DNA from: Octopus vulgaris
Taxonomy: Eukaryota
Direction: 5' to 3'
DNA length: 64,000 nucleotides
NCBI GenBank assembly: GCA_951406725.2
Contig: OX597831.1
Span: 77,438,001-77,502,000, forward strand
A program made the position numbers and the translations under genes. Positions within the stretch are counted from its first letter, which is position 1, and each line of letters starts with the position of its first letter. Shown here piece by piece: positions 2,672-64,000 of the stretch. Below the pieces are notes generated by a model. The model did no database searches. It worked only from the letters and a program-made list of their open reading frames with translations, and was not told the DNA's origin.

Positions 2672-3886
2672 CACTCACATGACAAAAGTAATCATTAAAA
2701 TTTATTTAAATCTGAAATTATACGTTCAAATTATTCATTTATTGTTATAATGTGAATATTTAATATTTAGTAGACATGCCCTTTGCACTTTTCAATGCAT
2801 GGACCCTATTAGGCATGTTACTGATCAGAGGACGAATATTCTCCGGTGGAATTTCTGGTCAATTTTCGGGCAGTAATCTCAAAAGATTTGGCTTTGTAGC
2901 TGTTTTCTTGTTCTTTTTATGAAGTGTCCTGTCCGTTATCTTCCAGAGGTGTTCAATAGGGTTCATATCTGCTGACTGGTTTGGCCATAGAAGCATTTTA
3001 ATGCCATTCTCATCCAACAAATCTTGGGTCATTTTAGCTATGTGACAAGGAGCCCCATCTCCTACAAATAAAGAGTCTTCTTTAATCATTTCACCAATGG
3101 AAAAGATTGGAAGGAATTCTTCCTGAAATCTGGACCTATATTTATCTGAGTTTATGTTTCCTTCACACTCCACCAGCTCTGATCAATCATTGCTCTAAAT
3201 TGTTCCCCAGACCATCACAGAATAGCTGCCTGGCTGCAATCTTTTCACATCAAATTCTTGATCACAGAGTCTCCAGACCCGCATTCGACCACTGTTAGGA
3301 AATACAGCAAATCTGGACTCATCAGAGAATATGACAGTGTCCCAAAATGCTAGTGGTCTCTCCACCATCTCACTGACCCAAACTTTTCTCCGCTTGATGT
3401 TGACTGTTTCAAGAAGTGGCTTCCTTCTTGATGCTCTGCCAAATTTGTGGAGATACCTGGCAGCTGTTTTGGGGCTGACATCAACTTGTTCTGCTATATC
3501 AGAGGCGTTGCAACGAGGATTATCCGCGACACTTCTCTTGACAAAGAGAAGGGTCTTGTCAGAAGGCTCTGGTTGATCTGGGTGAGATGATACAGACTCT
3601 TTTCGCTCTCTGGTGAATTGCACAGACAATCTATTAACTGTAGAAAGCGGTAACCCAAGGTTTTCTGCGATTTTACGCTGACTATGTCTACCTTCAGAAT
3701 GACCCACAATACAGCCTCTTTGAAATTCAGACAGTTCCAAGGCTTCTTTTGTACGTGGCATGATTAACCAGTCATATATAGAACCTGAAACAGAAAAATA
3801 TCAATTCGTAAAAAAGTATAAACCTTTACAAGTTAGAATAAACAGAAAACGATGTTCTATGGGGTGTCTATTTACTTTTGTTATGT

Positions 3887-34174: not shown

Positions 34175-34279
34175 TTCTTTTATTCTTTTATTTGTGTGAA
34201 GGTAGGAATCGGGGACGTAAACACACCAGCATCGGTTGTCAAACGACGTTGGGGGGACAAACATGGACACACAAATATA

Positions 34280-34328
<49 letters not shown>

Positions 34329-34447
34329 GACGGGGATCCCTCAGTTTCCGCCTACCAAATCCACTCAGAAGGCTTTGGTCAGCCCGAAGCTACAGTAGAA
34401 GACACTTGCCCGAACCCGGAACCATGTGGTTGGTAAGAAAGCTACTT
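34175..34447 (-). mobile_element. SINE-B body (3' part of a split copy; its head is at 36644-36674)
   Basis: Ends at ggaaccatgtggttggtaagaaagctactt; resumes at agctacttaccacacaaccacccatgcgcct. Confidence 0.9.
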
Positions 34448-36643
34448 TATTTTATTAAATTTGCCATAAAGGCAGTACATAGAGTAAGGTAGCTTGCAGG
34501 CTGGACACGGACATTAATGAGATGAATGATAATGATGGGAGAAGACAGAAAGCGCCCGCTGACCCTCTTCTTCCCTATAACATTGTTCTTCCACAACCAT
34601 ACATTTGAGATATTAAACCTCTTACAATATTTCGATATTTCCAATTTATTTGGACTAAAAAGTCCATTACAAATAAAAACTATTTAAACTCACACTGGAG
34701 GCAATAAACCTCTTATACTAAATCACCCTTTCACCATCCCCGATTAACTCTCTTGCGGTCTACAGGCCATCCCGCACCCAGAAGTTGGGGCCCCACAAGA
34801 ACATTCTGTAATCCTCCTTAACGGAGTCCGTTATATGGACAAATTCCCTTCTTTCCAGTACCAGAGCAGCCACCTGCGGAGGCCACTCTGGACTGTCAAT
34901 ACAATCCGAGTACATCTCCACAAAGTTCTCAATAGCCCCTCCCTTGCGATAGAAGAACACAAATTCCTCTCTTTCACCGGGAGGGCCCTCAACTCGGTCG
35001 CTCGGTTGCTCGCTCGGAGGCACCATTTCCTCCAGCGAGGCCACGGGACATGCTGGCAGTACATCACAAACGGCCGGTACTCTCCCGCTTTTCTTTTTCT
35101 TCTTCCCCTACCCTCCGGTGGCACATATCCCACCGAAGGGGTTACGGGACATACCGCCAGTACACCAGCAACCGTCGGCAATGCCCCGTTTTTCTTCTTC
35201 CTCCTCTTTTTTCCTTTACGACGGGAGGGTGGAGTTCATCCGACCTGTCCGGAGGTCACTCCTTCCATCCCGTCGCCGCAGGATCCATCGGTGGGCAACC
35301 ATTGTTGCCCACCTTCTTTGTTTTTTTCCTTTTGTATTTGAGGAGGTTACCTCCACCTCGACTTGCTCCCTCTCTCCCTCCAATTGGAGAGCAGGGGGCT
35401 CCTCAACAATTAACTGTTCCAGGACCTTTGCCTGGTCATTACGACAATTTTTCTTTACGAGGTCCGGAAGCCGCGGGCGCCCGAGCCCGGTAGAGCCGAC
35501 CGCGAGTGCAGATCTCGGTGGTAGTAGCAAATATTAGTAATACCAGATCATCGGCTGATTGGATCCATAGGGTCAAAATTGTTTTTGACCCAACCCAATC
35601 AGCCGCAGGCAGAATTTTTAAATGCACAAGCTTGGCGGTGCTGCTACCCAGCCCCCAACGGATAGAATCCTCTATTCATTCGGGCTCCATAGCGGGTGGC
35701 AACCCACTCACATAAGCTCTTGTCAGTTTTCGCCCACCGTATGTGGGGAGAAACAAAATTTTCTTCCTTTTTATAGGTTGGCTTACGAATTTTTGCGTCT
35801 CCGCAGGGGTGTCGAAAAGCATGCACACAGTTGCGTACTTCGAACCCCTAAGGATAAACCTAAAAGTTGGAAGGAACCCTGCCAACTCATTTTCAATATC
35901 ATTGCGAGAGAAAACCGTAATGGTGTCGGGAGACCTACAATAGGTTCTCAACACCACGGTCCTCTCGTTGAAATACTTCAATCACTTTTCTGCTGGCTTA
36001 ATTCCAAAGTTTTCTTTGCCATTTTTATGGAAGAAGAGAAAAGGCCAAATTGTTCGCAAACAATAGGTCCCAAAAACGTTCAACTGAAGTCAATAATAAA
36101 GTCAATGATAGTAAAAACAAAAAAAGGACGGAAAAACAGAAGAGAGAAGAAAGAAGGAAGGAAAACAGTACACAATGATGGCAGGAAGACAGTTCGAATG
36201 GCACAATTTTGCTACTCTCGTAATCCACGTGAAAGTTAATAATCCGTTGCAGCACAAAATTTTCTACTTTCATCCAACTTTTATGGCCGCCTCCATAAAC
36301 CCAAAGTAGATCCAATGGTAAATCCAATGGTAAATCCAGGACACGAACACAGTCAGAAGAAGACAATTTTTACAATAACTTTTCCGGCGGTATACGCCTC
36401 CCAAAAAATACAATTCTCACTACACAGTGAGTCTTTTCGCACAACCACAGGCAGACAAATGTCTGGAACCCAGTGGAGACCCTTTTTCGACACAAATTAT
36501 TACATACAAACAACAGACCCCACTGAGCTCCCTAAAAAACAAACACCTGACCTGTAGTTGTGCTTCAATTTTTCAATTATTCAACGTCGACCGACTTGAC
36601 TCCCAAGCGCAAAAAAAACACGCACTCTCCTGTGAAGTAAGGG
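34448..36643 (-). mobile_element. ORF1-only non-LTR-type retroelement, copy 1 (complete, ~2.2 kb), inserted in the SINE-B head
   Basis: 8-bp TSD agctactt at 34440-34447 and 36644-36651; ~620-bp 5' UTR, decayed ORF1, ~310-bp 3' UTR ending aataaaataa; no RT or endonuclease. Confidence 0.85.
34760..36022 (-). pseudogene. Decayed ORF1/gag-like protein (RRM-like + zinc-knuckle remnant + basic linker + C-terminal domain)
   Basis: ATG at 36022; segments ERTVVLRTY..RGSKYATV..FLPTYGGRKLTRAYVSGLPP, PDLVKKNC, KVGNNGCPP, CIDSPEWPPQVAALV; a TGA at 35676-35678 aligns with W in the 46177 homologue; several frameshifts. Confidence 0.8.
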
Positions 36644-36675
36644 AGCTACTTACCACACAACCACCCATGCGCCTA

Positions 36676-37894: not shown

Positions 37895-38500
37895 CTATAT
37901 AGGCACAGGAAAAATGCAGGATGGAAGAGTACAGAAAAAATTATTACGTGTGAAAATATAAAAATATATGAAATAATAAAAGGTATAATGAGATAAAAAA
38001 AACTTTTTTGGACATAATATAGAAAGCAAGTTCTGTCTGTTTTCTTGAGGGGACCAAAAACGTAACAAAAATTTTGTCACATCTGGGCATGACCCGAAAA
38101 GTTCTGTCCTTGAGTTTAGACATGTAGTAGGGTCTAAGCTGCTTTTCCAGATAAGCCATCTCTCCATGTCGCATAGACCGCACTTTCCGCTGCCGTTGGT
38201 GTAGGGCTTACATTTGGCCAAAATCTTCCAATGGATGTTGTAATTGACACCTTTAACTTTTAATGACCAAATATGATTAGATACTTTTGTCGCTTTTCTT
38301 TTGTTCCAGTGCCTAAAACTCAAGGTGTGGTTATTGAACCTGTCCTTGAAATTATCCTCTGTAAGGCCCACGTATTTCTTCGTCGAAACGGTGTCTGTAG
38401 TGGTTATAGAGTCCACGGTAGCTTCACAGATGATGGTCTCGGGCATGCAAGCTCCATTTAGCGGGCACAATTTTTTATTCCTGCAAGAACAGCTGTTTTC
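37895..38500 (-). pseudogene. PLE GIY-YIG endonuclease domain
   Basis: IICEATV...YVGLTE..FKDRFNNH..SF...HIW...CGLCDME...LNSRTE. Confidence 0.88.
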
Positions 38501-38641
38501 TTGTGGTTTTTGTGTGTTATGTGTGATTACATTTTTTAAATTGGTAGTTGAACTAAAACTAATTTTAAAATTGTGTTTATTGAAGAGTTTCCTATAAGTA
38601 TGGTTAACTAGAAATGTCTATCTATCAGTGTTAAGAAATAT

Positions 38642-39660
38642 TTACCTATATTGAAGGTCACCTCGGGTGAGTAAGGGGGGAAACCAGATGATCTTCCTAT
38701 TTCTATTTTTCCTCTTCTCTACTGTTGGGCTAGTAACAGGTGTATATTTTATTTTTTCGCTAAAACCACTATCTTTTAAAGCCTTATAAACTGGGGCAAC
38801 GCTATTAAAAATGTCCTTATCGGAGGAGAGGCTAAAAATTTTCTTACTAATATTTTTAACTAAATTTTTGAATACTATAAGGGGATGGCATGAGCCTACA
38901 TTAATATAACTAAGTCTATCATTGGGCTTCCTATAAGGCTTATAAATATTCTTATTAAGATCTAAGGAAACGTCTAGGAAATTGACAACCGTCAGGTTAG
39001 TATCTATAGTTATTCTAAGTCCGAAGTATTTCATTAATTGAAATTGGATAATAATCTTCCTAAAACGATCTTGTGCTGGTCCATTTGTATTAGCTGTTAA
39101 GGCGAGGGCATCATCTTTGTAGATGGCGAAATGTACGTCAGGGAATGTCTTACCTAAGGTATCTAAGAGAAAAAATCCAATAAGATCGCAAATGCCTGCC
39201 CCATCATATGACCCCATGCTCACATCGAAAGCGCCTTCTGTGTCAGTGTTTTTGACCCACTTTGCATTCTCACTGAAAAGTAAGGTCTTTCTAGCATGGA
39301 AGATTATGTCCTTATCATTTGTACTAATTTCTATGAAGTCGCTAGCGAAGACGAGGGCTTTATCTAGCAGTTCTTTAGAGATAGAGGCATAAAAATCAAC
39401 AATATCGAATTGTGTAAACCTCGCTTTTTTCTTATTCTTAATGGCTTTAAACCAGTCTACGACTTCTATACTATTGGACCAGTGTACTAGCCTAGTAGCG
39501 GTCTTGATTTTTGCATTTATTTTATCTAAAATTTCTTTACTAATAATCCCAAGTTCTGACTTAGCTGGGTTGATAAGCCTACATTTAGGGTTGGAAAGGA
39601 AGTTCTCTTTGTGGTCTTTAATTGTAATAAAGGCCTCTTTTTGGGGAAGGACTTCTATTT
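38642..39660 (-). pseudogene. PLE reverse transcriptase domain
   Basis: The frame of ORF 38642-39223 extends upstream through IEVLPQKEAFITIKDHKENFLSNPKCRLINPAKSELG. Confidence 0.88.
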
Positions 39661-39796
39661 TTTTTATCTAATTTAAGTTTAGCGGCGATAACGCTAGATT
39701 CTTTATTAATTTCATTATAGGTCTGTGGCCTAGCCTTAGTGTAATTATTAATGATGCTTACCACACAGCCACTCCTACGCCTAGTACAATATATAT

Positions 39797-40495
39797 GATT
39801 GATTGATTGATTGATTGATTCTAGTTTCAGCTTATGAGCTGTGGCCATGCTGGGGCACCGCCATTTGGTGTTGCTACTTGGTTTCACTTCACGAAAGCTT
39901 TCTAGCAACTGCCATTTGGTGCATGACAGAGTTCGATGCAGCTGCCCTCATCTGCCCCTCCTGCCGTGAAGTTGGTTCATCTGGGACACCTGACAGGAAG
40001 AGATCCAGCTTCATTTTAAAGACATCTGCATCCACCCCATGCAGGTCTCTCAGATTCTTCGGGAGGATATTGAAGAGCTGTGGGCCTCGGAAGCCCAGGC
40101 TATCACAGAATCTTGTCCTACATCTTGATGGCAAGTTTGGAGTCCTAGGCACCACGCAGTGGCGCCCAGTTCTGGCATTTGCGTAACTCTCGATGCCAAA
40201 GTTCAGGACACGTCCCTCCAGGATCTTCCAGATGTATATTATGGCATATCTTTCCCGCCTACGCTCCAGGGAATATAGTTTTAATCTCTTGAGTCTTTCC
40301 CAGTAGCTTACATTCTGCATAGAGGCTATCTTCTTCGTGTAGCTACGTTGGATCGCCTCGAGCTCTGTGATCAACTTGACACTGGATGGTGACCATAACT
40401 GAGAGCAGTAGTCAAAGTGGCTTAGGACAAGTGTCCTCCAGAGGACCATCATGGTTTCTTGTTCTCTTGTTCTAAAGGTTCTGAGGATCCATCCG
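39797..40495 (-). mobile_element. 3' end of a CR1/L2-group LINE with an (AATC)n tail
   Basis: ORF 39889-40452: LVLSHFDYCSQLWSP...LEAIQR..TK...YWERLKRLKLYSLERRRER...FKMKLD; short 3' UTR followed by tandem aatc. Confidence 0.9.
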
Positions 40496-40507
40496 TTTTT
40501 TTTAAGT

Positions 40508-40890
40508 GGAGGCGCAATGGCCCAGTGGTTAGGGCAGCGGACTCGCGGTCGTAGGATCGCGGTTTCGATTCCCAGACCGGGCGTTGTGAGTGTTTATTGA
40601 GCGAAAACACCTAAAGCTCCACGAGGCCCCAGCAGGGGATGGTGGTGATCCCTGCTGTACTCTTTCACCACAACTCTCTCTCTCTCTTACTTCCTGTTTC
40701 TGTTGTACCTGTATTTCAAGGGGCCGGCCTTGTCACTCTCTGTGTCACGCTGAATCTCCCCTAGAACTACGTTAAGGGTACACGTGTCTGTGGAGTGCTC
40801 AGCCACTTACACGTTAATTTCACGAGCAGGCTGTTCCGTTGATTCGGATCAACCGGAACCCTCGTCGTCGGAACCGACGGAGTGCTTCCC
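40508..40890 (+). mobile_element. SINE-A, full length
   Basis: Near-identical to 56029-56412 and 56635-57016; A-box tggcccagtggttagg, B-box-like gtttcgattcc. Confidence 0.93.
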
Positions 40891-57411: not shown

Positions 57412-57825
57412 TCCTTTACTCTTTTACTTGTTTCAGTCATTTGACTGCGGCCATGCAGGAGCACCGCCTTTAATCCAACAAATCCACCCCAGCACTTATT
57501 CTGTATAAGCCTAGTACTTATTCTGGCGATCTCTTTTGCCAAACCGCTAAATGACGGGGACGTAAACACACCAGCATCGGTTGTCAAGCAATGTTGGGGG
57601 ACAAACACAGACACACAAACATATACACACACACACATACATAAATACATACATACACACATACATATATATATATATATATAAATACGATGGGCTTCTT
57701 TCAGTTTTCGTCCACCAAATCCACTCACAAGGCTTTGGTCGGCCCGAGGTGCCACGCAGTGGGACTGAACCTAGGACCATGTGGTTGGTAAGCAAGCTAC
57801 TTACCACACAGCCACTCCTGCGCCT
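57412..57825 (-). mobile_element. SINE-B, empty target site (single agctactt at 57795-57802)
   Basis: gtggttggtaagcaagctacttaccacacagccactcctgcgcct. Confidence 0.92.
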
Positions 57826-63064: not shown

Positions 63065-64000
63065 TATTTCATTAAGATTTGCCATAAAGGCATTACAAAG
63101 AGTAGCTTGCTGGTTGGACATATACATTGATGAGGTGAATGATGAAACAAGGATGATATTGATGAGAGAAGGCAGAAAACGCCCACCGATTTTCTGCTTC
63201 TCTAAAACATTGTTCATTTTTTTCCATCAAAAACGACAATTATTGAACTTAATAGTCCATTACAAATATATATAATAAATTATTCAATACACAGACAATC
63301 TATAAGATCAGTCCTCCTCATCGGAGCCCCCAAGCAAATGACACGCCGCCTGCAGGAAAGCCTGCATCGGTAGGTCGGGCCCCGGAAAGAGGAAAGCAAA
63401 ATCTTCCTTATTACAGGTCACCATGACCTCGAACAGCTTCTTCTGACTCACGACGTCCGCAGCCAGCTGCGGAGGCCAGTCTGGACAGTCTATACAGACC
63501 GAGTCCAATCGTTCTCGGCCTGGAAGACCGTCCAAGCACTTCGCGACAGGCCCTTCCCTGAGATAGAAAACGACGGGTTTCACGTCCTCCTTACGGGGAG
63601 GGGCCTCAGCACACTCTGTCAGTGGTACAATTCCCACTGACAGAGCCTCTCGCTCCGGTGGCAAACCTTCCACCAGAGGGGCATCGGATTCAGTCGGCGG
63701 CACAGCGTTATCCGCCGACCGTCTCTCGTTTCTCTTCCTTCTCTTTCTCCTACTTACGGGTGCGGGAGTCGGATCCTCCACTGGCACACCCGGGGGAGGG
63801 TCCTCCTTTTCTCCTGCAACCTGCGTGTCTGTTGGTGAGCAACTATTGTTGCTCACCTTTCTTTTTCTTCTCGTTGAGGCCGATGCCTCAACGACCTCCG
63901 CTGTTTCTCCCTGCAATGGGAGAGCGTAGGACACCTTCACCTTTCCCTGCTCCAGGACCTTACCACGGCTCCGGGGCAAGTCCTTCTTAATGTGGCCTGA
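63065..64000 (-). mobile_element. ORF1-only retroelement, copy 2 (runs off the window)
   Basis: 3' UTR aligns with 34448-34680 (tttgccataaaggca, gtagcttgc, cagaaa.cgccc, aacattgttc, agtccattacaaata); same junction with SINE-B. Confidence 0.88.
63308..64000 (-). CDS. ORF1/gag-like protein, C-terminal part (open to the window edge)
   Basis: About 230 open codons: SGHIKKDLP (zinc-knuckle-like end), KVLEQ, KVSNNSCSP, basic RRKRRKR, VFYLREG...CIDCPDWPPQLAADV...KEDFAFLFPGP, matching copy 1. Confidence 0.7.
   Translation of the reverse strand, partial: SGHIKKDLPRSRGKVLEQGKVKVSYALPLQGETAEVVEASASTRRKRKVSNNSCSPTDTQVAGEKEDPPPGVPVEDPTPAPVSRRKRRKRNERRSADNAVPPTESDAPLVEGLPPEREALSVGIVPLTECAEAPPRKEDVKPVVFYLREGPVAKCLDGLPGRERLDSVCIDCPDWPPQLAADVVSQKKLFEVMVTCNKEDFAFLFPGPDLPMQAFLQAACHLLGGSDEED

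Follow-up and report, generated by a model that had tools for sequence, protein, structure and literature searches.

Targeting by site-specific LINEs is generally credited to their protein domains, at most helped by sense homology derived from the flank. HAL1-type elements encode ORF1 only, and IS110 elements, from bacteria, rely on a recombinase with a dedicated guide RNA (bridge RNA or seekRNA) that sets specificity. Among target-specific Tx1 LINEs, Tx1 inserts in Tx1D, Keno in U2, and Tx1-Mar, together with SINEU, in Mariner-N4_AMi; the paper on these elements credits target choice mainly to the endonuclease, proposes co-transcription with the flank, and does not use the word 'complementary' in its main text (PMC4494074). 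In R2Ol, R2Bm and R1Bm, the RNA carries target sequence whose annealing to the nicked primer strand raises the efficiency or precision of target-primed reverse transcription (TPRT) (PMC6530143, PMC10499050, PMC7265360). Read-through annealing aids R2Ol and sharpens priming by R2Bm (PMC6530143, PMC10499050). For SART1Bm, internal GGUU/AGG motifs, which are short target-like words of the 3' UTR, were proposed to pair with target DNA (PMC7265360). A survey of octopus repeats describes active L1-Tx1 families, and the word 'target' is absent from its main text (PMC13282606). No report of the family presented here, nor of an internal antisense motif that covaries with its target, was found in the literature searched, beyond which Repbase, subscription papers and supplements may hold the family.

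The window analysed, a stretch of 64,000 nucleotides from Octopus vulgaris, holds two copies of a retrotransposon family that inserts into the head of a SINE. The 3' UTR of these copies carries an inherited motif that is antisense to the first 6–11 target bases and of which one base covaries with the target variant. Our main reading, to which we give a probability of about one half, is that this motif works as a base-pairing latch and not as a guide.

The element family and its insertion site

Copy 1 lies on the minus strand (34448..36636), as do all features of the window located below. It is an ORF1-only (non-autonomous) Tx1-like element of ~2.19 kb, with a 3' junction that lacks poly(A) and an ORF1 (34760..36022) broken by stops and frameshifts. 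It interrupts a SINE, of which the 5' part of the head is left at 36652..36674 and the remainder at 34210..34447, and it is flanked by target site duplications (TSDs) of ~15 bp, AAGTAGCTCCCTTAC on the 5' side (36637..36651) and AAGTAGCTTTCTTAC on the 3' side (34433..34447). Copy 2 is represented by its 3' part (63065..64000) and extends past the window; it has an open ORF1 frame of 428 codons and no ORF2. An unoccupied T-type target, AAGTAGCTTGCTTACC (57787..57802), lies within an intact SINE (~57412-57825) and contains AGTAGCTTGCT at 57791-57801. The insertion site of the family in the SINE head is GTGTGGT^AAG(T/A)AGCTTGC, where the caret marks the junction and the variant at +4 distinguishes T-type from A-type sites. 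A pattern search of the 2.8-Gb genome returned 55,842 SINE heads with perfect target sites.

Several other features of the window were recorded. The target is quasi-palindromic (GGTAAG-N7-CTTACC, 57787-57805); it is predicted to form a hairpin in the T-type head, with a weaker DNA fold in TAAC and A-type heads. As to a tRNA origin of the target SINE, words like the A and B boxes were picked out in it by eye, and neither ARAGORN nor Rfam returned a tRNA. A second SINE family lies inside the 5' UTR of copy 2 (L031), with a tail similar to the 3' end of Tx1-like families that are not site-specific. Another SINE head is broken off at target +3 (GTGTGGTAAG, 39757-39783) and is followed by a Penelope-like RT fragment (37895-39667) with a weak GIY-YIG match. 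A Tc1/mariner-like transposase fragment is found at 3195-3800 (HTH_Tnp_Tc3_2 below the cut-off), and a frame at 39889-40593, which has no Pfam match, resembles by eye the C-terminal end of another LINE ORF2.

Elsewhere in the genome, an autonomous partner adjoins passengers of this family. It has the make-up of an APE-type non-LTR retrotransposon of the L1/Tx1 group, with an ORF1 and an ORF2 that carries APE endonuclease, RT and zf-RVT domains (Exo_endo_phos, RVT_1 and zf-RVT in Pfam), and the best PDB match of this ORF2 is human L1 ORF2p (E 7e-67). The window copies, which have no ORF2, share their 3' end with this autonomous LINE and are bounded by TSDs, are ORF1-only LINEs. Their ORF1 has no Pfam match, and its relatives are numerous (10,496 first-look candidates, 150 of them scored). 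The architecture, the long TSD and the target specificity together suggest a Tx1-like family. All 30 of the closest young autonomous copies are at the same site, and so are 13 of the 22 distinct copy-1-like insertions, the remaining nine being off-target. More than 20% of copies are thus flanked by one repeat at a fixed position, the threshold used for target-specific LINEs in PMC4494074. Passenger junctions lack poly(A), and passengers stack in tandem. One head-to-tail array (C1:223694761-223706806) holds at least seven passenger copies in 2.0-kb units beside an autonomous copy, and each insertion in it recreates the target. A second Tx1-like family (L095, L096, L108; C2:73046133-73068136) has an ORF2 frame of ~1140 aa and no antisense motif; it inserts at a different fixed target, flanked on either side by GGAAGCGACACCTACTG, and includes a tandem array of five copies.

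Full-length copies (L286-L305, L032/L038, L050/L054/L059/L061) inherit target-like 5' sequence from about +10, so that the apparent 5' TSD is partly derived from the element. Five of 18 young copies have TAACC on the 5' side but TTACC on the 3' side, and a 1-nt deletion within the target-like 5' sequence is common to four insertions. Inheritance at target +13 was also considered, 'TAAC' flanks being common in young copies; these flanks are uninformative because the TAAC variant has 26,882 perfect sites.

An antisense copy of the target in the 3' UTR

In copy 1 the motif GCAAGCTAC (34489..34497; gtagcttgc on the plus strand) is complementary to target +3..+11, and in copy 2 AGCAAGCTACT (63101..63111; agtagcttgct on the plus strand) is complementary to +2..+12. 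A terminal mini-hairpin of the form TGCC-N5-GGCA (tgccataaaggca) is found in both copies (34462..34474 and 63080..63092). The sequence-only reading, which had located motif, hairpin and target at exactly these positions, put the motif about 40 nt from the element end; the distance from its end to the 3' junction of copy 1 (34448/34447) is 41 nt. It had also described the motif as spanning the TSD, which must be corrected, since the motif sits inside it. Next to the motif, a CTTAC extension in copy 1 (34484..34488) could pair either with the intact target, with one bulge, or with the element/target junction, with one mismatch; extension beyond the nick fits a DNA and an RNA register alike. At the 3' end of copy 1 (34446..34456) one AATAAA hexamer lies within the element and a second is created where element and target meet (AATA^AA); they are a candidate poly(A) signal.

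The autonomous partner shares this antisense element with the passengers, at a different distance from the 3' end. Its motif, AGCT(A/T)CTT, is complementary to target +1..+8 and ends ~56–75 nt before the junction, whereas the passenger motif is variable, 6–11 nt long, and lies 35–41 nt before the junction. The antisense match that had been reported is real: when the 88-nt UTR stretch was shuffled 3000 times with dinucleotides preserved, a match of at least the observed length arose once for copy 1 (9 nt), never for copy 2 (11 nt) and once for a young autonomous copy (9 nt), which excludes a chance origin. In other Tx1-like families of the genome, the antisense match to their own flanks reached only 3–6 nt in 16 of 17 copies; the remaining copy has an 8-nt match and a T-run flank.

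Conservation was examined in 38 autonomous rows, of which the young family, after thinning, supplied 3. By majority conservation the motif scores 0.93, compared with 0.70 in the 30 nt upstream and 0.87 downstream; only the terminal hairpin and the 3' end contain windows that equal it. In passengers, the proposed conservation of a 9–11-mer holds for a core and not for the full length: AGCT(A/T)C is kept in 26 of 31 subfamily representatives, counted by eye, many of these having been found by a core-containing pattern. Column conservation is invalid for passengers because MAFFT placed gaps within the motif. The mini-hairpin, first thought invariant, is identical in the two window copies, but across the family its loop varies and compensatory TGTC/GACA stems occur (4 of 30 loci). 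A similar terminal hairpin ends other Tx1-like families of the genome.

Two further readings of the motif region were rejected. The 'ACC' that follows the autonomous motif might have signified pairing across the nick, but the same block is present in the non-targeting relative L082. Reading the motif in the sense register gives a poorer fit than the antisense one, except in the TTGCTTC lineage. One lineage of ~10 copies (L129-L131, L134, L137, L141, L310, L313, L318, L320) has, in place of the antisense motif, the sense-type CTTGCTTC or TTTGCTTC, which repeats the A-type target in its own orientation.

Covariation between motif and target variant

Covariation of the motif with target variants had been proposed as a test of base-pairing, and it was passed both in the passengers and in their autonomous partner. 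Among autonomous-type copies, motif and site agree in 108 of 110, A-type and listed T-type sites taken together: at A-type sites nine of ten motifs are GCTTC and one is GCTAC, and at T-type sites 99 are GCTAC and one is GCTTC among 100 matches listed of 139. The shorter-spacer copies, which are mostly passengers, agree in 159 of 177, the T-type share being from the matches listed. Here, 66 of 77 GCTTC copies are at A-type sites, and 93 GCTAC copies are at T-type sites among 100 listed of 329, the seven exceptions among the matches listed all belonging to one lineage. When copies at strict A-type sites were classed by eye (n=69), 44 had T in the motif, five of them duplicates of one insertion, 14 had A (13 from one lineage), and 11 were not scorable. 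All of these figures count copies, not events.

Phylogenetic contrasts were drawn from trees built with the variable base left out. In the autonomous tree, 36 of 38 rows were scored, one degenerate motif by column, and all 36 are concordant; four independent pairs all change in the same direction (p 0.125 taken alone). For passengers, 106 of 128 junctions had both anchor and length, the tree took in 90, and 78 were scored, of which 68 are concordant; six pairs gave a mean of 4.2 in the same direction, 0 opposite and 1.8 unchanged. Together the trees hold about eight contrasts in the same direction and none in the opposite one, although neither tree reaches p<0.05 alone, pairs being few, and the two are not fully independent because 3' ends swap between lineages (L133). 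Compared by eye, the two TSDs of an insertion have the same base at +4 in 21 of 23 shorter copies, so the variant read at a site is usually that of the real target. Covariation of any other element base with the target variant was not seen. Since the test was passed in both kinds of element, the pairing part of the original proposal, that is, base-pairing between motif and target sequence, is well supported. The motif looks selected, and comparative support for base-pairing is strong.

Site choice with and without the motif

The sequence-only reading went further and suggested an internal guide, and this part is not supported as the main determinant of the site. A guide in this sense would invade the target duplex, pair with the top strand, and decide the site or the SINE variant. 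We regard such a role as doubtful, although covariation between guide and target, as expected of RNA-guided integration, was found, and the motif equals the last 8–9 nt of the primer strand. Autonomous GCTAC copies also avoid A-type sites: one of ~138 is found there against an availability of ~12%, estimated from 100 listed of 28,960 matches (p 2e-7). This avoidance could also stem from the endonuclease, from read-through RNA or from the age of the sites. A-type autonomous copies are mostly old and long-branched. Of 13 A-type regions examined for a comparison of endonucleases between A-type and T-type lineages, one held a usable but degenerate EN domain. Within the near-identical copy-1 subfamily, the site is A-type in six of seven GCTTC copies and in one of eight GCTAC/T copies, giving motif-site agreement in 6/7 and 7/8 (Fisher p 0.01), which, like the avoidance of A-type sites, speaks for some influence at the RNA level; the subfamily tree neither joins the GCTTC copies nor splits them as one clade.

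Three comparative observations stand against a guide that is needed for, and dictates, site choice. First, a motif-less passenger lineage inserts precisely at the same base, in both site variants (9 copies); its best antisense match is 3–4 nt in 7 of 7, and it was collected through the target pattern, so only on-target copies were sampled. Second, a lineage with a T-type motif keeps to A-type sites (10 of 10 copy matches, from searches that did not fix the variant, with one copy in both) despite branches of 0.011-0.035, which are similar to or shorter than those of T-type lineages. Third, the copy-1 subfamily has the longest match, yet nine of its 22 distinct insertions are off-target, and these match +1..+6 at 41 of 54 positions and +7..+11 at only 13 of 45. 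The off-target copies begin exactly at the element end. No 3' transduction was seen in the nine, of which five have TSDs (~11–18 bp), one lies in a microsatellite and three are without a TSD. The mismatched T-type motif was recorded in a short passenger of ~470-530 bp (L026, L115, L308, L311, L316, L323), which occupies A-type sites and has a common 5' junction. A simple guide is further at odds with the lineage that bears the sense-type CTTGCTTC. The motif is thus probably not the sole chooser of the site, and the system is a base-pair-assisted variant of TPRT, not a demonstrated RNA-guided one.

A proposed base-pairing latch and its alternatives

Judged by sequence alone, the partner of the motif may be the top DNA strand, read-through RNA, the 5' end of the element or SINE RNA alike. 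The latch reading would work as follows. Transcription would continue past the 3' junction into SINE sequence, and the junction-made AATAAA, as a possible poly(A) signal, would leave read-through target sequence on the RNA. The motif would pair with this read-through copy and close a 3' stem-loop domain. The ORF2 endonuclease would then nick the bottom strand at T^AAG, and the two duplexes would likely swap partners: the read-through RNA would anneal to the freed primer strand, and the motif, identical in sequence to the primer end, could take the displaced top strand. Such a swap would favour priming exactly at the last base of the element. The site itself would probably be chosen by the endonuclease and the flank-derived RNA, the motif following whichever variant a lineage inhabits.

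When 25 nt of read-through were included in the fold, the motif paired with the flank (P>0.5) in 48 of the 56 concordant autonomous copies and 60 of 93 concordant passengers, and in 0 of 2 and 4 of 13 discordant copies, respectively; as a consequence of complementarity, this result adds no independent evidence. Most folds predicted with read-through have the 3' domain closed by the motif, which is largely unstructured without it; pairing is weak in lineages L050, L051, L130 and L026. A latch is favoured over a guide because of these folds, the possible poly(A) signal at the junction and the known benefit of read-through in R2Ol and R2Bm. It is not required, since the motif-less lineage joins precisely and off-target copies start at the element end. 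A duplex of 6–9 bp is weak without protein help.

A combination of the two roles, in which a short internal guide and read-through RNA would grip both target strands by reciprocal exchange and one base change would retarget a lineage, appears unlikely, and we would place it level with the guide taken alone. Less probable still is that the motif is a functionless by-product, which arose by fold-back and is overwritten again and again with flank sequence through template switching or the repair of quasi-palindromes. Motif and flank do form an inverted repeat 40–80 nt apart, the target is itself quasi-palindromic, and one rare templated event in the founder of a lineage would yield the same covariation; but private flank changes are mirrored in the motif in none of nine cases (changes that may postdate insertion), the mismatched lineage was corrected in none of 13 copies, and motif conservation exceeds that of the upstream UTR.

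It is about as improbable, if not slightly more so, that the partner of the motif is a different RNA that contains the target, either the target-derived 5' end of the element, as in circularisation, or SINE transcripts in trans. The inherited target-like 5' sequence (TAACC/TTACC and the shared deletion) and the abundance of SINE heads agree with this possibility, which predicts covariation equally well. Pairing with the 5' end, however, needs a transcript start upstream of +1, which would have to be supposed, and predicted folds of four SINE heads leave little of +1..+16 unpaired. Finally, a conserved word that serves to bind protein and is like the target only by coincidence, with old (A) and young (T) lineages tracking SINE age, would suit the self-complementary AGCT and the age of the A-type autonomous copies, but is very improbable given the shuffle test, the switch in several separate clades and never in the opposite direction, and the absence of the motif from other Tx1-like families, whose flanks give no consistent antisense match.

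Comparison with known systems

That the family passes on an antisense element, and that this element has followed the target through repeated switches, points to one more step in the initiation of TPRT that is based on RNA. The question is directly testable because young copies with full-length ORF2, matched, mismatched and motif-less variants, and ~56,000 perfect sites are all at hand. Should the motif steer insertion to any degree, it would be relevant to the retargeting of LINEs for gene insertion, and the combined guide and read-through reading, if true, would describe a naturally RNA-tunable retrotransposon.

Like the target-specific Tx1 LINEs (PMC4494074), the octopus family is an APE-RT LINE that lives inside another repeat, with non-autonomous passengers and tandem stacking; unlike them, its target is a SINE head. 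The homology used by R2Ol, R2Bm and R1Bm is sense, downstream of the element and derived from the flank, and to this the octopus family adds an antisense, covarying copy within the UTR. The words of SART1Bm have sense orientation, and their pairing with the primer strand leads to internal initiation, whereas the octopus motif is complementary to the non-primer strand. As in HAL1-type elements, the window copies encode ORF1 only, but they are site-specific and dependent on a Tx1-like partner. Compared with the IS110 bridge RNA, the pairing in the octopus family is putative, confined to 6–11 nt and dispensable in one lineage; the likeness, by analogy only, is that the RNA of the octopus element could contact both target strands by base-pairing.
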